A DNA stretch of 64,000 nucleotides from Kondoa subrosea (lineage: Eukaryota), in NCBI GenBank assembly GCA_039545335.1, contig BCIN01000002.1, positions 62,001-126,000 of the forward strand. Reading direction: 5' to 3'. The notes beneath the pieces are model-generated. The model did not search any database and was not told where the DNA came from. It worked only from the letters and a program-made list of their open reading frames with translations. Each line of letters opens with the position of its first letter. Position 1 is the first letter of the stretch. Position numbers and translations under genes: made by a program. Positions 25,650 to 39,488 of the stretch are shown piece after piece.

Positions 25650-27593
25650 TTACCTCCCTTCCCTCGCTATCGCTCTGAGCAGATCACCACTATCTCCTCT
25701 AGGTCGATCGATGAGCAAGATCGAATTCCGGGGTAGCAAACTTGATTCTTCATTCGATATCGAATTTGTTGACAGAGCAGAATGACAAGCTGTCAACCTT
25801 GATCTAGCGTACGCTTGAGAAGTTTTGCGGAATTGATCTAAGCGATGAGTAGTGATTTGAACATTTGATGCCTTTTTTTCGCCCAAATTTTGCATTAGCA
25901 AGATGTACAATACTTAGAAAGGAGAGAGGTAACTCACTTGCAATCGCAAAGCAGACAATGAGATTCCTAACTCCGCTTCGACGTCCACTACTTGACTACT
26001 TTTCGAAGAAGGTTCAGAACCAGGTATGGACGGTTTAGCTAGCTTGAGCTTCGCAGTTTGCTGTAAACTTTGTCCGTAAGCTACTACTTCCGCTACGGAT
26101 GATAGTTTAGTAGGTAAAGGTGAAGAGAAATCGTAAGGTAATTGCTGAGGTGGTTGGGATGATGAAGAAGCGGCTCGAGCTGCTGTATCCCTGAATAGTG
26201 AATATTTCTTGATATACGCTCTTCGTGATTCGTCTTCTTTAGTGACGCTGTCCGTAAGATGAGACTATTGAGCTCAATATTGAGCAAAGCCACACTTCGA
26301 CGAACCTAGCTATCCAATCTTCCAACCCAGTCATCTTTTTCTGTAAAGCTTCATTCTCCGGGTTCGGTAGCAAAACGACTTGAGTCGTTTCTTTCTTCTC
26401 ATTATTACCAGAAGTCGACAACCAATTCACATCTACTTTCTTATTGCAAACATCATCGATGAAATTATTGATGATTTGAGAAGCTTTCCGTTTAGCTCTG
26501 TCTTCTATCGATTCTGTAGTAGAAGTTGTCGATGATGAAGAAGGGAAAAGAGGTGCCACAGGAATTGAGGAAGTCAAATTGTCATTGAATCTTCTAGCGG
26601 ACCAAGAAACCAAAGTCAAGAATCGAATCGGAGGTGGTTCGTTTGCGTCTATATGCCTATAGAGCGTGTTGTCCTTCACTGAAGGATGCGGTGTAGCTGT
26701 TTTATCTTCTTTGGTCAGCGTTGGCCAGTTTGTATAAAATGAACAGGATAAGAACAGAAGACTAACCTTCAAAACCCGAACCTATCGAGCTAGCCCTTCT
26801 TCCTCTTCGACCTACACTTGCTGATCTAGACGTAGAACCGGGTTCTTCAATCTCACCTCTTCGCATAGCAGCATTTCGGTTGATTCGAGGTGTCTCAGAT
26901 TCAGGTATCGGCACAACTTGAGTTGTTTTATCTTGCTCGTGAAGTAATGGATGTAAGCGAGTCGTTCCCCTAGGCGACAAGAAATGGTCCGCTGGAGGTT
27001 CTTCTATCACTACTTCTGCTGATTTCGATTTCGCTCGAGTATTGTTGGCTCGATGAGGAGGAGCTAGATCTTGTTCGGTAGCTTTCCGTTTGCCTTTCCT
27101 GTCTACTGTTGCAGGTTGTGTTGTGGTCATGGAAGTAGAAGCGACAGGTTGAGCTTTGTAAGGTATTCGAGTAAAAGTGAAAGCATCATCATCGTCTGAA
27201 TCCGAGTCAAGCGTTGCTTTCTTCTGTTTCTGCTAGGCTCATCGATCAGTTTACCAAATGTTAGATATGATAAGGTGAACACACCTTGTTCGGCGGGGCT
27301 TTCTTTGGTTCTATCCTAACACGCTTCTTGTTGCCAATGTCCAATTCCTGCTGTTCCCCTTCACTCAGGATATCAGATACGCATCCTGTACCATCTACAG
27401 CATTTCCAGTCCCCAAAGGTTTGCGCTTGAGCTCTTCATAACCGGACAGACTGCTGTTTGAAGAAGACTTGCCATTCGTTGAGGTCGTTTTCAATTTGGT
27501 TTTGACTTGCGATGACACTATTCCAGAGGCACTTGAGTACTCCTTACAAGTTCCAGCTATAGACTCTGAAGCGCACTTTGACTGAGAATGCAT
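25650..27593 (-). CDS. DSN1: Kinetochore Mis12-complex subunit Dsn1/Mis13; start uncertain
   Basis: DDAFTFTR, ETPRINRN..MR, RGRRASSIGSGF, PHP.V....LYRHID...P.P.R...L..W...R, PNPEN and terminal DLLRAIA. Confidence 0.85.
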
Positions 27594-27611
27594 AAATTTC
27601 GTTACAAAATC

Positions 27612-28170
27612 GCGAGCGGGCGGGTTCCAAACAACAAATCAAGGAAGTCAGAGTCGTGATGACAGACAGCAGGGTATAAGACTAAAGGAGTGTATGTAAG
27701 CAGGCAATCAGCAGTTCATGCGCCAAATCAGTCGTCGCATCAAAACAACAAAGGACTCGAGTTTCTGAAAGCGACGATACAGACTCGGTGGCCTCTGAGC
27801 AGGGCATAGTCTGTATGCTCATGTTCAGCCTTCGGCCGCTTTGATGTCCGCTCTGTCTCTTTCAGAGGGATCTGCTTCAAATCCAAAGCTTGTCTGTCCT
27901 TTGCGAATTCAAATCAAGAAGGCTTCAGGCTGTCATTTCTGTCTCGCCTCTTCTTGATCCTTGCAGACATGATATTCGCCTGCATGTCTGTCGAGCTGGC
28001 ATCAAGTGACACGTAGATCAATGAGATCTCTAAATGGCTTTTGCTCGGTATGAGCGTCATTCTATCTACCTATAGAAGGCCTTTCTCCTTTTATGCCTCT
28101 CTGGCAGCTAGTTTACGTGATGCTGTCAAACACTTCACTTCCTTTTAATGCCTTGCCTCTGTTTGTCTGC
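27612..28170. repeat. Left flank A of the duplicated cassette, copy 1; homologous to 30419-30950
   Basis: About 110 bp from 27682 (ctaaaggagtgtatgt...gatacagactcgg) is near-identical to sequence from 30439. Similarity then decays toward 28170. Confidence 0.93.
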
Positions 28171-28495
28171 CGCGACATGGAGTTGGCGCCGTCTGTTGCG
28201 TGACTCTGTTCGTTGCCTCCTAGTCCAGCTAGTCGTCGTTGCTGTTCCAATCCAGACATCCGCCTAACCACTCGGCTTAGGCTTCGCTTCGCTTCGGTAT
28301 TATTACGTCTTCTTGTTCATAAATCCGATCTCTCTCTTTACAACAATCAATGTCAAGCTCTTCCTCTCTTCAAACTCTTCCTTCATACAGAAAGTCGCTC
28401 TTCCCCTATACAGAAAATCGGAATATACTGTATGTCGGTCAAAGATGAATCGATGTTCCCTTGACTGACCTTCTTTTCTTTGTCATCCATAACAG

Positions 28496-29112
28496 ATGCC
28501 TAACGTATGTCTTTAGCCATGCCAACCATCTGATCTGATCAATGATACTACTTGCAGTCCGGCAACCGATCGGACCGCCGGCCAGCCCACACTCCTTTTG
28601 GACGTGGTATCCTGGATGAGCAGGTATATTCTTTTACTTGCAACTCACTTCATCCATTTGCTCATCTACGATACTGTTACAGCTCAAAAAAGCCGATGAA
28701 AAGGAAATTCAGTTGGGATCAGCCAATATTCTTCAAACCTCCTTTGCTTCCGAGCTCGCCAACGAATTGAACGAGCACTATGGATACCACGGAGAACATC
28801 AATTTCGCTATGACAAGGATGCAGCAATTGTGAGTTACACTTTTGTCATTGTTTGGCGACTTGCTGACTCGAAGAAAGAGAACTCTTTCCGAGCACAAAG
28901 GTAGAAAACAGGTTGCAAGCCGGGGTGAGATTCACGCTCGCGTAGATGCTGTCGAGAAGAGAGCAGCAGAGCAGAGTTCCGCTCAAGCCTCACATCCCAC
29001 AAATGTTGTTCATCCTAAAGCTACTCCACAAAACCATTTTGGTCCCGGAGGCTTTATATTTCCTGAATGGAGTCAAGATTCGCACCACTCAAACGATGCT
29101 GCACGCAGATAG
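28496..29112 (+). CDS. Orphan gene X (about 150 aa), possibly helix-turn-helix or Myb/SANT-like
   Basis: Four exons splice in frame to MPN-SGNRSDRRPAHTPFGRGILDEQ-LKKADEKE...SELANELNEHYG...DKDAAI-RTLSEHKGRK...DAARR*. The fold assignment is speculative. Confidence 0.5.
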
Positions 29113-29236
29113 TGGTGGCCCAATCATCAGTACATAGATCAATTATTAGCAGTCTTCTTTCCTCAACCCAAGCTCTTCTTGTAAAGCTCCGAAAAGGTGA
29201 AAGGAAGGCTCAGCCGAATAATGTTTGCGAAGCATT

Positions 29237-30420
29237 TCACGTCGTGCAATCGAGGCAGGGTGCATGTTTTTTGTTTTGAGCAAACGGACGAAGACAGTAT
29301 AGCAGGAGATAAGCCCTATGCATTGACTTGAGTATCAATTCGCTTGCTGTTAAATCTTCTTCTCCTTGCTCCAACATATCCGCTCTTTCAAACCCAACTT
29401 TCCTCAAAACTGTTCTACAACCTTGATTCTTGACAAAATCCAACTGTTCCTCATATTTGACCATAATCATCCCAGCAAAAGCCAAAGAATTCAAACTGAG
29501 TTTATCTTTATCTTCTTTTTCTGTTCCTTCGTGGAAATAGTAATTCGCACTTGATCTGGGTACGAGCATCATCCAATTGACCGTCATGATGAGATTGTAA
29601 GACAGCTTGGACGCGGATGTAGGGGTAGTAGAGGATTCAGGAAGATGTCGTATGTTGTCCATAAGGGAATCGAGCAGACCGAGGTATGAAGTTGTCAAGT
29701 ATTGTTTGGCTTCAGATGTTGAGAGAGAAGGTAAAGAAGACAGAGATGAGATACTGTGACAAGTTGGCAGAAGATGGGCGGGCGAAGAATAGGTTTCGCC
29801 TGTCCAAAGGATAAGCAGATGAAGAATACGACTTTGAAAGACGTACCAGGTTTCAAATTCTTTGGCTTGGAATCTCGTATACACGGCTGAAAAGGCACAG
29901 CACCAGTATTCAAATGGATGAATTGAAGATGCTTGTGGGGCTGGTAGCGGCGAATCAGCTGCAGAGTCATAAGAATACCTAATGACTAACTTGACTTGCC
30001 CCGCTACGAGGCAACATCTTTAGCTGAGCATGCATATACAACGCAGAAAGACATCCAACTCACGAGTAGGGGCCTGAATTGAAAAACATCGCATGGGGAG
30101 CCGGACCATTGTTCTCGAAAGGAACTTCAAACTGCTGCAAGATTCGATACGCCGTATACAGCTCAGAAGGCGTCAACGGTGACTCTTGAGGTATGAAGTC
30201 TTTAGTACAGAGTAAGAAATGAGCTGGAACCACAGCACTTCATGGTGACTTCAGCTCAGACTTGACGAGCTCTGGCGACAAAAAACGGACAATTTATTCA
30301 GTAGTATCCTGAAGCCTTCTTGGTCTTCTTCGTCATCGTATTCGCAAACAATAGAATGCTTTCCAGGGATAGACAGCGCAAATGGATCTTTACAGCGACA
30401 TCAACAATAGACACAGATCC
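29237..30420 (-). pseudogene. 5'-truncated second copy of Ap4A phosphorylase; exon 1 missing and C-terminus frameshifted
   Basis: Collinear with 32560-33665 and retains DPF, LLNK, HFLL.TK.F.PQ.SPL and FFNSGPYSGASQPHKHLQF. Homology stops inside intron 1 at about 30420. A net +1 indel near 29345 bypasses the stop codon. Confidence 0.85.
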
Positions 30421-30950
30421 GAGCGGCAGGGTTCAAGGCTAAAGGAGTGTATGTCAGCAGGCAATCAGCAGTTCATGCGCCAAATCAGTCGTCGCATCAA
30501 AACAACAAAGGACTCGAGTTTCTGAAAGCGACGATACAGACTCGGGGGCCTCTGAGCGGAGCGTAGTCTGTACGCTCATATTCAGCCTTCCGCCGCTTTG
30601 ATATTGGCCTTTATCTCTTTTCAGAGTTATCTGCTTTCAATTCAAAGTTTGTCGCATGCGAATTCAAGGAAGCTTTGAGCTGTCATTTCTGTCTGGTACC
30701 ATCGTATCGTTCAGCCTCTTTTTAATTCTTTCAGGCATGGGCGTCTCAGGCAGCTCTTTTCATATACCGAGTCTTCAGCCGACCCGGCATTTGCACATAG
30801 ATCGAGGAGATCTCTCAGCTGGATTACGTTGGCATGACAGTAATCTCTCTGCGTATAAAAGCTCTTTCGTTCCGCGTCTCTGTATCAGATATTCTGGCGA
30901 TCCTGTCAGACCCTTGACACCCTTCCGGTGTCACGCCTCTGTCAATCTGC
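30419..30950. repeat. Left flank A' of the duplicated cassette, copy 2
   Basis: Homologous to 27612-28170, with about 50 bp deleted near its left end. Confidence 0.93.
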
Positions 30951-31242
30951 AAGGCCCTGGGTAGAGTTCGCAGCCTCCACATCCGTCGCAAATACGCTGG
31001 TATACAACATTTTGCTTTATGACGCGTAGACTGGCAAGTTTAGTTAGGTCAGTACAGGGTTTTAAGAATTCAGCTTCAGCTATTGAAGTTATTTTCATAT
31101 TGTGCACTCAGTGTACGACTCCCTCGGATCCATCGGCTGTACTTGATCATTACTTTAGTATTACTTTGTTGAGAAATCCGGAGCTGACCGGCACACCATG
31201 CTTATTCCATTCTTTTTGAATCACATTGTTCTTGGCTGCCTA

Positions 31243-31260
31243 TCTCTCTCTCTCTCTCTC
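31243..31260. repeat. (TC)n microsatellite upstream of gene Y
   Basis: About nine TC units within a pyrimidine-rich tract. Confidence 0.8.
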
Positions 31261-31336
31261 ACACTCTTTCCCTTTTTTTCTCTCTATTACTCTCTCTGTT
31301 TCGATCGACTTATCAGTCTATCCTCTGGCTCCTAGT

Positions 31337-32496
31337 ATGTTACCCACAGTCGAGCATATAACAATAGAACAATTCAAGACGCTCGCCCACAAAGAGCAGG
31401 CAGAGACATACATCGTCGTCGGTTCGCTTAATAGAAAAGACGAGGCGCCATGCTGTTCCGCTATCAGTAAGTCCAGGCGTTCTCTGAGAGAAAAAAACCT
31501 TAGCTGAAAGAATGGCAGCTGCGACTTTGAAGAAAGTGCTTGACCATATGTCCGCACGGATGAGCCTCAACCGCACCGAATGTTCTGCAGAGAAGCGGCA
31601 AAAAGTACTTGAGAAGACACTTCTTGTGGTTGGTGAGTTCGCCATTGCGCTATGTCGACACGTCAGATTGAATAGTATGTTACAGGTGAGACTGGGCCTG
31701 GGGAAAGACGTCTAGGAGCTCGCTTGAAGCAAATACGAAAGGCATTACAAGGAAATCAAGCCAAAACGAATGGTTGGGATAACGTTCTCATTTGGTGCAT
31801 ATTTTCGGAAGAATGCAATAGAAGTGGGCTGAAGTCCATGTAGGGGCAAATACAAGCTGCCAAATGCACCGACACCCAGGGGTGCAACCACGAGGAAGCG
31901 AAAGCGAAGAGACACCAGAAACACCAAATCGCGAAGAGCCCATTCTTTAAGCGAGGAAGAAGAAGAAGAAGAGGAGGGGGAGGGGGAGGAAGAAGAGGAG
32001 GAAGAAGAGGAACCAGCACAGGAAGAGGAAGAGGAAGAAGCAGCAGCCGCAATTGAAGAACCTGCAGCCACAACACACAATCATGCTCCAACCGCGCATG
32101 CAATGGAGTCAGATGAGGATGGTTAGTCGCTCAGCCTATGTCCTATGCAGACCTTGAGATAGCAGAAACAGAGAAACCGGAAATCATTGCCAAACCAGCA
32201 GATTCGGTAAATTATTTCGATGTTAGCAAACAATTGTCTTACGATGATTTCTTCAGATATTGCGAATCTTCCTAGAGCAAAGGTGCCCTGGTTTATGGTC
32301 CGACGTGTATCGCCAGCTGACAGCAGCAAATATCACTTTGAACAAAATCAAGCACCTTTCCACCAAGGAAAAGTTCAAATCGATTCTCTTGTCTGCTTGT
32401 GGTCCAACTACAGCTCAAGATCGCAGACTAGCAGAGATCGATTTCGAGCTTTTGATGGAAGCGTTTGAAGCAAACGACTTCAGAAACGGTGCTTGA
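31337..32496 (+). CDS. Orphan gene Y: probable nuclear protein with NLS, poly-Glu tract and C-terminal helical (SAM-like?) domain
   Basis: Six exons splice in frame to MLPTVEH...AETYIVVG...QAKTNGWDNVLIWGKY...RKRKRR...poly-E...ILRIFLEQRCPGLWSDVYRQL...EAFEANDFRNGA*. The first intron is unusually short (37 nt). Confidence 0.65.
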
Positions 32497-32574
32497 TTTT
32501 TGTTGTGGGTTGAAGAAGTACTTAGAGGAAGCACAATATCGCAGTGCAGTACTTTGTATGCATTGAATTGAGTA

Positions 32575-33895
32575 TCATTCAGCTTGTGTCGAGTCTTCTT
32601 CTCCTCCTCCTCGTTCCAACATATCCACTCTTTCAAACCCAACTTTCCTCAAAACTGTTCTACAACCTTGATTCTTGACAAAATCCAACTGTTCCTCATA
32701 TTTGACCATAATCATCCCAGCAAAAGCCAAAGAGTTCAAACTAAGTTTATCTTTATCTTCCTTTTCTGTTCTTTCGTGGAAATAGTAATTCGCACTTGAT
32801 CTTGGTACGAGCATCATCCAATTAACCGTCATGATAAGATTGTAAGAGAGTTTGGAAGTGGATGTAGGTGTAGTAGAGGATTCAGGAAGGTGTCGAAGGT
32901 TGTCTATTACGGAATCAAGAAGACCGAGGTATGAAGTTGTCAAGTATTGTTTGGCTTCAGATGGTGAGAGAGAAGGTAAAGAAGACAAAGATGATATACT
33001 GTGACAAGTTGGCAAAAGATGCGCAGGTAAAGAATAGGTTTCGCCTTACCCAGGAATCAGCAGATGAAGGATACGACTTTGGAGAACGTACCAGGTTTCA
33101 AATTCTTTGGCTTGGAATCTCGTATACACGGCTCAAAAGGTACTGCACCCGTATTCAAATGGATGAATTGAAGGTGCTTGTGAGGCTGGTAGCGGAGAAT
33201 CAGCTTCAGAGTCATAAGAATACCTGATGACTGACTTGACTTGCTCCGCTATGATTTAACATCTCCCGCTGAGCATGTAGATACAGCGCAGAAAGACATC
33301 CTACTCACGAGTAGGGTCCTGAGTTGAAGAACATTGCATGAGGAGCTGGACCATTGTTCTCGCAAGGAACTTCAAACTGCTGCAAGATTCGATATGCAGT
33401 ATACAGCTCAGAAGGCGTCAACGGTGACTCTTGAGGTATGAAGTCTTTAGTACACAGTAAGAAATGAGCTGGAACCACAGCGCTTCATAGCGAATTGAGC
33501 CCAGATTTAAAGAGCTCTAGCGGAAGAAAAACGGACAACTTGTTCAGCAGTATCCTGAAGCCTTCTTGGTCTTCTTCGTCATCGTATTCGCAAACAATAG
33601 AATGCTTTCCAGGAATAGGCAGAGCGAATGGATCTTTGCAGCGACATCAACAATAGACACACATCCAAGCCTCATAATGAACCACACCCTTCTTCTCCTT
33701 CTTAGGTTGCTGTTGCCCATCTTTAGGCATAGGTTTGGCTTGCAAGCTCTTTGCATGACGAATCTCAAAATCCACTCCGTCCTCTCGCGAATAGGTGATC
33801 TCGCTCGGTATAAAGGTCACTTCGCCTGCTTCCAGAGCATTCTTGTACGCCGCAGCTAGCTTTGACCGGAAGCCTGGTATCAATTCCGCCGTCAT
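32575..33895 (-). CDS. APA2: Diadenosine tetraphosphate (Ap4A) phosphorylase / ATP adenylyltransferase
   Basis: FEIR...SLQAKP, DPF, LLNKF.VVP.HFLL.TK.F, FFNSGP.SGASQPHKHLQF (HxHxQ motif), SYNLIMT..WMMLVPR and SLNSLAFAGMIMVK. Confidence 0.93.
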
Positions 33896-34051
33896 GTGTA
33901 TGATCTCGCTGTTTCGAGATGAGCAAGGTTGGAGAACAACTGTTCGCAGGTCAGTCGTGCTGCTAAAATTCTGCTGGCTGCTCTTCTTCTCTTTCCTATC
34001 TGGCTGCAGTTCTCTCCGCTGTGTCTCCCTCATTTCCCTGGCCGTGTCGTC

Positions 34052-35690
34052 ATGTTGTTTCGTCGACTCTTGTTCTCTATTTCACGCTCGCCCTTGACTT
34101 CTAATATTACTATCAAATCTACTTCTGCAGCTGTGAATGCAACAAAGAGGAGTCTATCTACCGCGCAAACAGCAAGACAGCAATACAAGCGATTTGGTCA
34201 ACAACAGCAACAAGCTCTCCCTTTTGGTCGTGGATCAGCTAGATATGGGCCTGGAGGAAAAAGGGTACCTCCTGCGTTTTATGTTGTAGCAGCTGGTGGA
34301 GGAGGTGTTTATGTTCGTTCAGGATCCTTTAACAGAGCAAAGGATCTTGTTTGACTTATATCTTTGCGTTCTTTGACTTGTATAGTAGTGAGTCAATATT
34401 TCCTCCTAGCGGCATTAGAGCTCAAACGGTCAGATAACAGTGTATATCATCTAGAGAAGTAAGTCGAACTTCTGATCCTTCATATCTCAAGGTAGCTCAT
34501 CTTCGCCTTACCGTTCGAAGAGTACCAGAAACCGGTCGTTGGCGATTTATTGATGTCTCAGAAGCGACCGAACGGGAAATGGGAGACCAAGCAGCGGCAG
34601 AAGTCTTGGGTCAATACAAAGGTCGGATCTTACCACCAAGAGATCCGCGGGTAGTCCAAGTCAATCGCGTTGTACATCGAATTCTTGAAGCTTCTGGCTT
34701 GGATCCTGACAAACACTCAAGCGGTGGTATTCAGGAATTGGACAAATGGAATAGCAAAGGAAAGATGAAGGGTGTTGATTGGAAAGTGTAAGTGATAACA
34801 CTTTAGCATGGCAGCTCATACTGAAGGTGTTGTAGATATGTAATTGACGATCCTCAAGCAAATGCTTTTGTCTTGCCCAATGGCACAATATGTGTATTTA
34901 GGTCAATCAGTCTATTGCCTTGCAGAACATCTTCACTGAACTTTTATTTCAGTGGTATTCTGCCTATCTGTGCAAACGAGGATGGTCTTGCAGCAGTACT
35001 AGGTCATGGTGCGTTCTGGCGGGAGGCATCTGACCAAAAGACGTGTATTGATGATCCCTCTATGCAGAGGTCGCGCATCAGGTCAGGACCTTTGTGCTGT
35101 ATCTTGTACAAGTCTGAGAATCTACCAGGTTGCTCGACACTCTGGTGAGCGAATGAGGTGAATTGTTGATCGTTTTATGGGCCGAACTCATACTGACATG
35201 ATTCGCAGCGGGCAGAAAGTAACGACTGCTTTGCAATGGGCACTGTTCTCGTTAGGAATAGACATGGGAATCGCTCAAGGGGCTCTACACTACTTCATGA
35301 CCCTGCCCAACTCAAGAACGAACGAAACAGAAGCAGATTCGATAGGTAGCGTGCAGCTTCTGCGTTGCGCTTAATTGACGTTAAACCACCCCACCCGTAG
35401 GTCTTTCATTAGCTGCTTCGGCTTGCTACGATCCGAGAGAAGCCGTACACCTGTGGGAAAGGATGGCGAAAGCTCAAGCGGCACAGGGAGGTGCTCCACC
35501 TTCTTTCCTTTCTACACATCCTTCAGATTCAGCAAGAATAGATAAAATCAAAAAGTGGTTGCCGGAAGTGAGCTGTTTCTTTTTGGCGACTGGCAGAGCT
35601 AATTGTGAGTTTGTGATATAGGTGATGGAGAAACGCGTAGATAGATGTGGTCCAGCCAATGAATTCGAGACAGCTGTCAAGCGAATGTAA
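34052..35690 (+). CDS. OMA1: Mitochondrial metalloendopeptidase Oma1 (peptidase M48)
   Basis: Targeting-peptide-like N-terminus, HLEKVPETGRWRF, NAFVLPNG.I.VFSGILPIC, GLAAVLGHEVAHQ (HExxH), LPNSR.NE.EAD.IG and FLSTHP. Confidence 0.95.
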
Positions 35691-35734
35691 AAACTAATCA
35701 TGTACAATGCTTTCTGAACTCTCCATAATACTTG

Positions 35735-38448
35735 TCACACCCTTACCAGACCATGCTTGATCAATAATTGCCTGCTTAGCTTTGGGTTAACAGCTTCTAC
35801 ACTTTGCATCGACAAAGTTGCTGCCTCTTGAGCTATTGCGACCATGACATCGCAGGTTCTTTCATAGCTGTGAATCGGTATGCTCGATTGAGTAGCTTGA
35901 AGACATGCAATCTACCATCGACGTCAGTGTAGCATTTATACCAGAACGATCGGACGTACTAAAGCACCGGCAAGCGAATCGCCAGCTCCTGTAACGCTGA
36001 CAATGGAACTAGCAGGTATTTGTAAAGGCGTGTAGTATCGGATGACGAGATCTTCTTCTTGAGGTGTTCGCCATACAACAACATTCTTCTTGTTTGAGAA
36101 ATCGGTAGGTTGAGATGCAAGTTGAACCATCAGTAGTCCTTCATTGCCTAATTTGACCCATATCGTTCCGAAGAATTGTAGAAGCTGGATCGACATTTGT
36201 GCAAGACCTTCTTTCTGAATAAAGGAAGGGAGATGTCGAGCCAGAACATCAGTGAAGCTATTGCTGAGATTCAGACTATTGATCTTGTCGAAGGCTGTGC
36301 TATACTTAGCTCGAACGCGCAGAATATCATAGAGTACATACAGATCAAGTTCTTTTCCTTCGCAGCCATCCACAATGCTTGCAACTCTATCCTATTCGGC
36401 GAAACATGGGTAACTTTCTGCTCTGAAATACCAGCTGCAGCTTGTTGCTCAAAATGCGGCAAGATACGCAAAGCCTTTGCGGTAGAAGTAGGTTCGAAGA
36501 AGGTCTGCTGAGCTGGAAATTTCTGGTTCTGAGATCGAAGTAGTTCAGTTATGGTTGCCGAGCTGAGGTTGCCATCAAAAGCGAGGATATCCGGCGGACT
36601 TTGAGCCAGGACAGACTCAATCTATTACTGTTTAGGCTTCATATTGGTCTCGAGAGCACAAACACTCACTTGCGAAACTTTCAATTGCTCAATAGAGAGC
36701 ATATCCGCTACACCTCCAATCAATGACCCATCCTTGTCCAGAATAGAATTGCAGACAGGCGTGTGAACCTTTTCATTGACAATCAAACCATGAACAGGTA
36801 AACCGATCTTGGACATCCCAGCTTGCAAAGCGGAACCAAACAGATCCTTTCCTATATTTGAAATAAGTAACGCGGGACTTTCCATCAACCTCGATGCAGC
36901 TTCCGCCATGTTGCGTCCGACTCCTCCTGGTTCAGCATAGACCACACCAGGCGAAGTAGTCTCTGTTGCTGGACCGTATGCTTTGCTTGTGATATCTAGA
37001 GCTGCAGAACCGACAACGACAACTTTGGCGACAGGGTTTGGAGCAGGATCGAAAGATCCTATAGTTTCAGAATCTTTCGTTGCGAAGGAAGAAGGTGGTG
37101 GCATTGACGGTTGAAAGGAGGAAGGTCGCGGTTGGTCTTGATTGATTAGCTCTTGATGATGTTTAGCTATTTGTGCTGCATGCTCTGCATTATTCTTGAT
37201 CAGAGCAATGTCTGGTTCGATCGTGAGAAGCTATCATTCAGGCGAAGAATAGACTCACTGCTCTCGACACTGCTTCCTCCAGTAAGCTCCTTGACTCGCG
37301 AAAGAAGCCAAGCTAGATGACCCTTAGTATGTTCGTTATGTCTCTGTATCTGTACCAAGCTCACGAGTTACATATTTCCCTCGTGAAGCTTGTCCATTGA
37401 TCTCAGATTCTGCTACAGCTTGTTCAACAGCTCTTTGTATTGGTATTGCTGCAGCCTCAGCTGATTCAGGTATGGGCACGCCTATCAAGATTCCAGATTG
37501 AGTTCGAAGAAGGTCGTTTTGGTCTGTTAATTACACCATTAGCTGCTATGGTGTATTCAATTTTAGGCAGCGCTCACAAATCAGCTCAGCAGCCTCTTTT
37601 TCGCTCGCTAGGGTTACAGGACTCGCATATCCTGACTATCACGCCTAGTGTTAACACTTACGAACGAAATAAAGGTCTTAAGGCTCACAGATCTACCATA
37701 AAAAGCAGGAAAGTCTGGAGATCGCATAGTAGCTACAGTCACGCCTTGAGTTTCCTTTATTCTTGTCAGCTTGTGTCTATTCGAAGTCCAAGCGACAGAT
37801 GCTTACCAGGTATTCGAGAGTTCGACCAATGTCCAGAATACTTTTCGCTCCAGCACAGATAACAGATACAGGAGTGCGTCCTAGCAAAGACATCGTCAGC
37901 TTCTGCTTTCTAGGCTCTGCTAAAGAACATTCACCCAGCTCAGTGAGATCTGCTGAGACATCAAGCGAGTTTTCTCCTCCTCTATGAACTCCTCCTATTC
38001 CGCCCGTGCAGAAGACTTTGATTCCAGCTTGATGAGCGAGAAACATAGTAGCTGCGACAGTTGTTCCACCATTCTTTTGTTGTACTAAAGCTTGAGCGAT
38101 ATCTCTTCTCGAGACTTTGAGCGGTTTCTCTGCTTTCACTAATGCATGAATTTCTTCGTCTGATAAACCGACATGAATCTTGCCATTGATGATTGCGATA
38201 GTTGCAGGACAGGCATTATGTTGACGAATGATCTCTTCCAATTCCCTCGGCAGAGTGTAGGATTCAGGATAATCAAGTCCATGAGTAGCAATAGTGCTTT
38301 CTAGAGCTACAATAGCTTTCCTGCTTTCCAATGCATGGCGAACTTCTTCCGTGTAGACAATAGGCAAACGCGAGGAAAACGTAGAAGCTTGTCTCCGGTT
38401 GAGAGCGGTGCAGCGCAATCTTGCCAATTGGAGCAGTCTGGTCCGCAT
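35735..38448 (-). CDS. Bifunctional pseudouridine-5'-phosphate glycosidase (IndA/PsuG) fused to a PfkB-family pseudouridine kinase
   Basis: VALESTIATHGL.YP, KVSRRD, GGTTVAATM, TGGIGGVHRG and GAKSILDIGRTLEYL, followed by PfkB motifs GGVGRNMAEAA, FEPTS and SVTGAGDSLAG. Confidence 0.95.
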
Positions 38449-39488
38449 GCCGGCACAAGCGGTCGCTCAACTCAGAAATTCGCAATGTTGTTCCGCAACC
38501 ATGATTTTCGAGCAATACCGGATATCATGCTGAGAGATACCCAAGCTGAGGATACCAGCAGGTCCTCAAGCGTTGTATTGAGGGACGAAGGACAGCAAGA
38601 AGTGGAGACTGGAGCATGCGCGAGATCAACGAAAGGTTGAAGGGATATCCTCAAACGCCAGATTATCCTGGATAGGCCCGAAGCAGCTCTGCCATGCACA
38701 GTAGAAGGTCATCTTTGGGCTTCTCCTTTCCCCTTCGAATTCAGCGATTTGCGATTCCCCATAAGTAAAGCGTTTGTCATCTTGCCGTGACTGAGGCATC
38801 TTCAAGCTCAATATCTCTGGCTATTGTGATGTATCACAATTCATTTGCTGTTCTCATATGTTGCTTTACGCGCTGCAAGTATATACACGCTCTCGGAAGA
38901 CGACACAATGCCATACATCCACCGTCCTGTAGCTGTCGCCGACGTGTGATGTAGAGGTAATCACTCACTGCATGTACATATGCCGTGCCAGACATCTATC
39001 AGAGCAAAAATGCCCAAAGCCAGCTTCGTTCGATTGATCATCTACACATTCTTGACATCTTATGGTTCCTTGCTTGAAGCACAGAGAACCCTCGCAAGTT
39101 CTCATTGGGTTGCTCTCGGATACACATCTTCAGTACCCTCCCGCTCTTGCCAGCTGACTGAGCTTTCCATGTTGCGATTACCACAACACAAAAAAACAGA
39201 GTAATTATACTATAAGTTCGCGTGTCTATTTGACTGGTTCGATCATGAAAGCAAAATGAGAGATATGCAGTGCCTTCGATATGCCTTGTAGAGTGTGGTC
39301 GCTTCGAAAAAAGAGGCTCGTTCCGAGTCACTGCTCTGGGCGACTGCACTATAGCTAAGATAGACCCAGGACTCAAGGCAAGCTAAGAGAGGATGAAGTC
39401 GAGCAATCTTGACATAGTAAAGAATTAATCATCGTTGTCAGAATACCCTGATAATACTGCACTTGTTCAATGCGATTGTCAACATCAT

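Follow-up and report, generated by a model that had tools for sequence, protein, structure and literature searches.

A tandem duplication between DSN1 and APA2 in Kondoa subrosea with unrelated middle genes and a constrained, 5'-truncated APA2 copy

In the fungus Kondoa subrosea, a 64,000-nt stretch of contig BCIN01000002.1 (the whole of which is referred to here as the window) carries a head-to-tail tandem segmental duplication between the kinetochore gene DSN1 (DSN1/Mis13) and APA2, a complete gene for an Ap4A (diadenosine tetraphosphate) phosphorylase; the distal end of unit 1 is joined to the proximal start of unit 2. Unit 1 (27668..30424) consists of a left flank from the DSN1 upstream region (A), a gene designated X and APA2', a copy of APA2 exons 2-6 without exon 1. 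Unit 2 (30426..33670) consists of the second copy of the left flank (A'), a gene designated Y and APA2 exons 2-6, with APA2 exon 1 (33688-33895) lying outside the unit. Both units were delimited by self-comparison and by reading of the junction, and are given without strand. As an explanation for this arrangement we tentatively favor, at somewhat less than even probability, a genuine and fixed tandem that arose through an old duplication and in which APA2' would be a functional paralogue whose 5' exon is not seen.

Self-BLAST of positions 26000-36000 returned two collinear direct matches only, and nothing further matched in the 64 kb window. The right-flank match (29317-30424 versus 32557-33670) was 90.1% identical over 1115 columns (expectation value, E, 0.0) and the left-flank match (27669-27944 versus 30426-30694) was 85.3% identical over 278 columns (E 6e-86); a repeat search of the window found the same repeat families. 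Read base by base, the duplication junction (30424..30426) is blunt, with right-flank homology running to 30424, one unmatched G at 30425 and left-flank homology starting from 30426 (equivalent to 27668/9), and no repeat or mobile element is found at the join. A remnant of APA2 intron 1, of which 37 nt are left upstream of exon 2', is here joined to position -75 relative to the start codon of DSN1. The corresponding right breakpoint, 33670, falls within APA2 intron 1, 37 nt upstream of exon 2, and unit 1 therefore holds APA2 exons 2-6 only. An earlier description of this DNA made from its letters alone (the sequence-only reading) had proposed a head-to-tail tandem of two units flanked by the DSN1 upstream region and an Ap4A phosphorylase. 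Self-BLAST and junction reading agree with the tandem, with coordinates within ~55 nt, and the flank assignments were confirmed by Pfam matches on DSN1 open reading frames (ORFs) and on both right flanks.

Read depth supports the tandem as a real feature of the genome. Depth was obtained from independent contigs of two runs (X1 and X2) of one sample, which may be the source of the assembly. In run X1, depth was 148.6 for the contig with the X core and 136.1 for the contig with the Y core, as compared to 156.5 and 143.8 for flank contigs of 88 kb and 110 kb; in run X2, the two cores were at 49.3 and 52.8, as compared to 51.8 for a 6.8 kb left-flank contig and 53.2 for a 2.7 kb right-flank contig. 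Contigs of 290 nt inside each APA2 copy were likewise at single depth. Half coverage of each unit, by which the sequence-only reading had proposed to recognise mis-joined haplotigs, was not seen; both middles are at the depth of the single-copy flanks, which rules out mis-joined haplotigs of half depth. All bins were covered (30/30), with no variant letters, joints or loose ends listed. Among the contig pieces listed, none bridges 30424/30426 (every bin being covered, with no loose ends), and identical blocks of ~100 nt are common to both units, one at 27698-27798 and one at APA2 codons 230-264. Because short-read graphs cannot phase identical blocks of ~100 nt, the placing of X and Y with respect to the outer flanks depends on the assembler. 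The two blocks themselves could be gene-conversion tracts or strongly constrained elements.

Both right flanks match Ap4A_phos_N and ATP_transf in Pfam (E 3e-23 and 1.3e-23). APA2 (32575..33895, minus strand) encodes 351 aa in six exons (33895-33688, 33633-33537, 33482-33309, 33248-33236, 33185-33092 and 33044-32575) with all introns of the GT-AG type; it matches PF19327 and PF09830 and, weakly, the yeast Apa2 structures 4i5t/4i5v (E 0.005). APA2' (29237..30387, minus strand) retains the counterparts of exons 2-6 (30387-30291, 30237-30064, 30003-29991, 29940-29847 and 29799-29237). Pfam scores are nearly equal for the two copies (82.5 versus 83.7 bits), with the 82.5 bits of APA2' obtained for PF09830, and exon 3' of APA2' scores 19.1 bits for PF19327, under the cut-off of 23.1 for that fragment alone. 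The N-terminal domain of APA2' is incomplete, as exon 1 with the first 69 residues is missing; its reading frame is intact. Both copies have kept an HKHLQ stretch, to which we presumptively assign a catalytic role.

Comparison of the two copies shows that APA2' has been under purifying selection. Exons are identical at 780/842 positions and introns at 208/247 (Fisher p 1.5e-4), and splice sites have been retained in APA2' at 4/4 donors and 5/5 acceptors. The 268 codons compared show 43 synonymous differences as against 11 replacements, corresponding to a synonymous divergence (dS) of 0.289, a replacement divergence (dN) of 0.018 and a dN/dS of 0.062 (p 1e-20); a pairwise dN/dS of 0.5, the expectation if one copy had been a pseudogene throughout, is rejected (p 1e-10). 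A dN/dS far below 1 is the standard indication of a functional gene copy. In simulations at 10-14.5% divergence, a neutral copy never kept its ORF and splice sites (0/3000 trials); at 2% divergence, it did so in 4-17%. The sole frame change in APA2' is a 6-nt deletion with a 1-nt insertion at the extreme 3' end, which gives a frameshifted C-terminal tail that is longer and different, running 80 nt into sequence specific to unit 1. Expression of APA2' is a prediction of the favored old-duplication explanation.

Synonymous differences are distributed over the APA2 quartiles as 10, 14, 11 and 4, with the fewest beside the core, and homology on the APA2 side breaks off sharply 18 nt beyond the stop codon. 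A stretch of ~105 nt in APA2 exon 6 (about 29440-29545 and 32683-32788; codons 230-264) shows zero differences where ~5-6 synonymous differences are expected, which could reflect an ectopic gene-conversion tract or extra constraint. The use of yeast Apa2 as an outgroup to polarise the 11 replacements was abandoned, as the only PDB match (E 0.005 over 92 residues) is too distant, and a metagenome scan for relatives, made with an APA2 exon as query, confirmed 0/180 pattern stretches.

On the opposite side, DSN1 itself (26242..27593, minus strand) lies outside the duplication. Pfam identified MIS13/Dsn1 on minus-strand ORFs 26242-26781 (E 3e-10) and 26762-27130, and the 5' part of the gene was modelled with exon 1 at 27593-27285, a 55-nt intron and exon 2 from 27229; this in-frame splice model places the putative start codon at 27593. 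Left flank A (27668..28190; partner A' at 30426-30950) starts 75 nt upstream of this ATG, and its identity to A' falls from 98% to 78% to 65% before it disappears, in line with the inward decay of similarity that the sequence-only reading had described. The most conserved part, block S1 (27684..27800, -91 to -207 from the DSN1 ATG; partner at 30441-30557), is identical at 115/117 positions. This exceeds the conservation of APA2 coding exons as well as that of introns and synonymous sites taken together as a neutral proxy (344/426 identical, 80.8%; Fisher p 1.6e-7 for S1 against the proxy). Further inward, positions 27801-27944 are neutral-like (105/135 identical), positions 27945-28190 are identical at 155/238 with an additional 32 gap columns, and past 28190 the identity of 131/293 is at the level of alignment noise.

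Block S1 was considered as an RNA gene and this was found to be unsupported, as Rfam gave no match to the block and its folding z-scores of -1.2 to -2.7 belong to folds that are unlike between the two copies. S1 contains CAACAAAGGA at 27746-27755 and 30503-30512; these are the sole two occurrences in the window and correspond to the two repeat copies. The AACAAAG core of this element resembles the motif bound by HMG-box factors. A TATA-like GGGTATAAGAC is found at 27672-27680, where flank A begins on its outer side, ~80 nt ahead of the DSN1 ATG. Its counterpart in A' (30429-30437) reads GGGTTCAAGGC, and the copy that precedes APA2' has thus lost the TATA-like element.

The middles of the two units (~28191-29316 and ~30951-32556) have nothing in common at the DNA level or at the six-frame protein level in sensitive blastn and tblastn searches. 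Core 1 and core 2 match only in a continuation of the left flank up to 28170/30950 (66% identity across 187 columns, E 1e-13), and the downstream end of the X core and the upstream start of the Y core share nothing. Each middle holds a single gene on the plus strand. Gene X (28496..29112) encodes 151 aa in four exons (28496-28504, 28558-28623, 28683-28829 and 28879-29112) separated by introns of 53, 59 and 49 nt, all GT-AG. Gene Y (31337..32496) encodes 308 aa in six exons (31337-31466, 31519-31632, 31686-31794, 31844-32121, 32151-32206 and 32257-32496). Starts and stops of both spliced models are identical to the limits given in the sequence-only reading (28496-29112 and 31337-32496). Both models are full GT-AG spliced reading frames, with introns of 49-59 nt save one, and their introns have the size and signals seen in neighbouring genes; codon scores are positive in frame and negative in the other two frames of the same strand. 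The exception is intron 4 of the Y model (32122-32150), which is just 29 nt and is needed to avoid a stop at 32127. Each gene is convergent with the APA2 copy of its own unit, leaving 29113-29236 between X and APA2' and 32497-32574 between Y and APA2. Because the stop codons are just 124 and 78 nt apart, the 3' untranslated regions of X/APA2' and of Y/APA2 probably overlap.

X and Y are unrelated to each other, their Smith-Waterman score being matched or beaten by 51/500 shuffles, so the claim of unrelated centres in the sequence-only reading has held. Its further observation that neither gene belongs to a recognised family was upheld in Pfam and the PDB: for 13 ORFs or exons taken from the left flanks and both middles, Pfam gave no family at E <= 0.01 and rows of chance level only at E <= 5, and PDB sequence searches with X and Y returned nothing. 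Atlas look-ups gave best scores of 0.88 and 0.80, under the lead threshold of 0.9, and SAM-like Atlas rows for Y at 0.80-0.83 are leads only. Neither X nor Y has a paralogue in the window.

In the product of Y, a basic stretch is followed by a long acidic run, and the C-terminal 80 aa form a four-helix domain. The acidic stretch is encoded by an imperfect, GAA/GAG-rich triplet run at 31954-32052. A single-sequence AlphaFold model of the last exon shows four helices, with a predicted local distance difference test (pLDDT) of 77 and a predicted template modelling (pTM) score of 0.63, and had no match in the PDB at E <= 0.001 (Foldseek). A phmmer search of this exon against 1.84 billion representatives gave three matches at E <= 0.001; these are long repeat proteins with 4-7 weak stretches at 26-38% identity (two of the three inspected) and were rejected as repeat-inflated chance. 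In a word-index protein search, neither the last exon of Y nor exon 3 of X had a match, which is uninformative as the control, the last exon of APA2 (Pfam E 1e-23), also had none. A metagenome scan with exon 4 of X confirmed one match out of 312 (L001), which was rejected; it rests on a seeded 8-residue word and lies in a contig with 55% guanine plus cytosine (GC) with neither APA2 nor DSN1 nearby. As X was searched less exhaustively than Y, its status as an orphan is provisional.

A foreign or transposon-borne origin for X or Y is argued against by composition and intron style. GC content of the middles is 0.42-0.49, matching the surroundings, and the repeat search and Pfam found no transposase, reverse transcriptase or terminal repeats. 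The features of a transposon-borne or foreign insertion (mobile-element enzymes, terminal repeats, target duplication and deviant composition) were thus not found for either gene.

Taking these observations together, the old duplication that we tentatively favor could have begun with one non-homologous join of the end-joining type, which connected a break in APA2 intron 1 with position -75 of DSN1. The stretch reaching from the DSN1 upstream region as far as APA2 exon 2 would thereby have been copied. The duplication would be old (dS ~0.29) with both units in use, unit 2 keeping the complete APA2 together with Y, and unit 1 keeping X together with a 5'-truncated APA2 paralogue that may still be read as protein. 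APA2' would now be immediately preceded by a copy of the upstream block proximal to DSN1, and this copy could act as a promoter or regulator for APA2', for Y or for both. The first coding exon of APA2' would be supplied either by an unseen upstream exon or by APA2 exon 1, spliced across ~3.3 kb that contain Y on the opposite strand. The different middles would most readily have arisen after the duplication, each copy losing one of two ancestral neighbours, X and Y; alternatively, the middle may have been replaced in one copy.

Several observations weigh against this explanation. The most direct concern the 5' end of APA2', which has no exon 1 and in which the unspliced frame meets a stop 4 codons upstream of exon 2'. 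The first in-frame Met of APA2' is codon 82, and the 81 codons ahead of it, with 13 synonymous and 2 replacement differences (dN/dS 0.04), are constrained like the remainder. In the ~950-1300 nt upstream of APA2', no plausibly placed ATG exon with a phase-1 donor of the GTNNGT type was found, weak-donor candidates being the only ones for an upstream first exon, and the window holds no second copy of APA2 exon 1, even a diverged one. Splicing from APA2 exon 1 to APA2' would require an intron of 3.3 kb, in contrast to local introns of 29-60 nt. With regard to the left flank, positions 27945-28190 are more diverged than the neutral proxy (65% versus 81%, p 1.5e-5), and a single duplication date does not predict this excess. 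Finally, blastn, tblastn and alignment found no trace in unit 1 of a Y that had been lost, nor in unit 2 of a lost X; therefore, clean deletions or a replacement must be assumed.

A second explanation, possible though unlikely, is that two long-diverged and complete haplotypes, DSN1-A-X-APA2 and DSN1-A-Y-APA2, were fused late, a version of this being that they were brought together by hybridization or introgression; instead of two haplotypes, homeologous chromosomes could have been involved. This explanation includes the proposal of the sequence-only reading that two alternative alleles became joined in tandem through unequal recombination. A recent non-homologous exchange would then have joined APA2 intron 1 of the X haplotype to the -75 position of DSN1 in the Y haplotype. 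Flank divergence (dS 0.29), the selection signature and the conserved DSN1 block would all go back to a period in which both loci were still complete, and APA2' would be a young fragment, dead on arrival. Such a fusion would account, with no added assumptions, for a dN/dS of 0.04-0.07 in a copy without exon 1 or an early ATG, as well as for the 115/117 identity of the DSN1-proximal block in a copy no longer beside DSN1, and a single blunt junction would be enough. That the sole APA2' frame change falls at the extreme 3' end agrees with a brief neutral phase, for which the simulation allows ~2-3% neutral divergence at most (probability of an intact copy 0.04-0.17 at 2%). Late fusion is also in line with the left flank being most diverged next to the middles; on the APA2 side, however, divergence does not rise towards the middle (quartile counts of 10, 14, 11 and 4) and homology has an abrupt limit. 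A precedent exists at mating-type (MAT) idiomorphs, where unequal recombination has left a truncated gene copy (PMC3583454). On the other hand, no second haplotype was seen, the DNA being found in one sample only and without variant letters, and for alleles other than those of mating-type or het-like loci a dS of 0.29 is extreme. No alpha-box, HMG, homeodomain, HET, NACHT or other Pfam domain is present in X or Y, and the long-term balancing selection or hybrid ancestry that the fusion needs has left no independent sign. Even if a late fusion took place, both forms are now in cis in this genome. The stricter proposal, by which X and Y formed the centres of two ancient alternative haplotypes, unlike known mating-type or het genes and recently fused here, with APA2' and the orphaned DSN1 block as undecayed relics, is decidedly unlikely.

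Quite unlikely, too, is an older and slightly larger tandem duplication that gave a complete second APA2, with exon 1 and a short promoter and possibly with a second DSN1. This second APA2 would have worked for long, until a recent deletion took away its 5' end and thereby produced the junction seen today. As with late fusion, the selection signature in a copy with an intact body and no start codon would be explained, in this case with no need for diverged alleles. A complete duplicate would extend only ~300-400 nt beyond the present one, the distance from the APA2 start to the next ORF (34052) being ~150 nt. However, an extra event is required, the fragment would have been caught within about the final fifth, or less, of its existence, and the different middles and the excess divergence of 27945-28190 are left unexplained; in the small version, so is the 98% identity of the DSN1 upstream block. 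For the different middles, none of the three models is sufficient alone, since each needs reciprocal loss of X and Y or a replacement.

An assembly artefact, in which two haplotigs or dispersed paralogous loci were wrongly joined into an unreal tandem, is very improbable: the missing bridge over 30424/30426 among the listed pieces and the ~100-nt blocks that short-read graphs cannot phase speak for it, but both middles and both APA2 copies are at the depth of the 88 kb and 110 kb single-copy flanks in two runs with neither at half depth, the 30/30 bins are covered without loose ends, joints or variant letters, and APA2' ends within an intron directly against A', so that any path using each piece once yields the tandem.

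The two leading explanations predict opposite outcomes for RNA and for the same interval in related strains. If the old duplication is true, a partial gene copy has survived without its first exon, under strong selection and behind a copy of a kinetochore-gene upstream region, and each repeat unit has also retained a different orphan gene. The way in which APA2' gains a start, through a new exon or through long-range splicing from its parent, then bears on gene birth in compact fungal genomes. If the late fusion is true, alternative haplotypes of great age have been frozen in cis at a site where none were known, and the locus would point to an undescribed balanced polymorphism.

From its sequence alone, the window looks fungal, judging by short GT-AG introns of 29-60 nt, by Pfam families that include MIS13, Nop53, TCP-1 and pinin, and by a lack of tRNA and Rfam matches. 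ARAGORN found no tRNA in the whole window, and Rfam over 26-36 kb gave one long non-coding RNA row at chance level (E 0.67, under the gathering score). A scan for bacterial promoters and terminators was empty and is not applicable to a fungus. An ORF at 34052-34354 (plus strand), with an N-terminus rich in R, S and T and no Pfam match, is divergent from APA2; with ~150 nt between its start and that of APA2, the promoter region of APA2 must be very short. Adjacent ORFs at 36628-38466 (minus strand) carry PfkB kinase and Indigoidine_A (pseudouridine-5'-phosphate glycosidase-like) domains and are probably one fused or split pseudouridine-salvage gene.

With regard to known systems, a literature search found no paper with both 'APA2' and 'DSN1' as whole words. 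Fused idiomorphs are known from homothallic species, and spore-killer genes are not known to share a family. Pfam found neither MAT-locus genes (alpha-box, HMG, homeodomain, pheromone or receptor) nor het or allorecognition domains (HET, NACHT/NLR or other described ones) in the cores. A flank gradient of the idiomorph type, with divergence rising towards the core, is present on the left (98%, 78%, 65%) and not on the APA2 side. The locus resembles MAT idiomorphs in having shared flanks around non-homologous cores and a truncated gene copy from non-allelic exchange, and one study reports for Grosmannia and Ophiostoma a truncated MAT1-1-1 inside the MAT1-2 idiomorph (PMC3583454). The present locus differs in that its flanks are DSN1 and APA2 rather than the SLA2 and DNA-lyase genes named in that study (PMC3583454), in that no alpha-box or HMG domain is present and in that the flanks are 10-35% diverged; it is known here from one genome.

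With the general class of reciprocal (differential) gene loss after duplication, the locus has in common that a different gene is retained in each repeat copy and that the shared parts are still present. Unlike in that class, no decayed remnant of the lost partner is seen at a dS of 0.29, and the ancestral order DSN1-X-Y-APA2 is hypothetical. As members of the family of yeast Apa1/Apa2 (PDB 4i5t, 4i5v and 4i5w), both copies match PF09830 (E ~1e-23) and PF19327; APA2' departs from the Ap4A phosphorylases in being without the first 69 residues (exon 1) and in its different and longer C-terminal tail. Partial-gene tandem segmental duplications form a general class in which a chimeric or 5'-truncated paralogue is made behind a captured promoter. 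The DSN1-APA2 tandem is similar in its head-to-tail arrangement, in its one non-homologous intronic junction and in having a truncated copy that lies behind the upstream region of another gene and is held under purifying selection; it is unlike the usual case in that its middles hold unrelated, intact genes and no new first exon is seen. New here are the breakpoint in APA2 intron 1, a constrained yet startless APA2', the conservation of block S1 and the excess divergence next to the middles.

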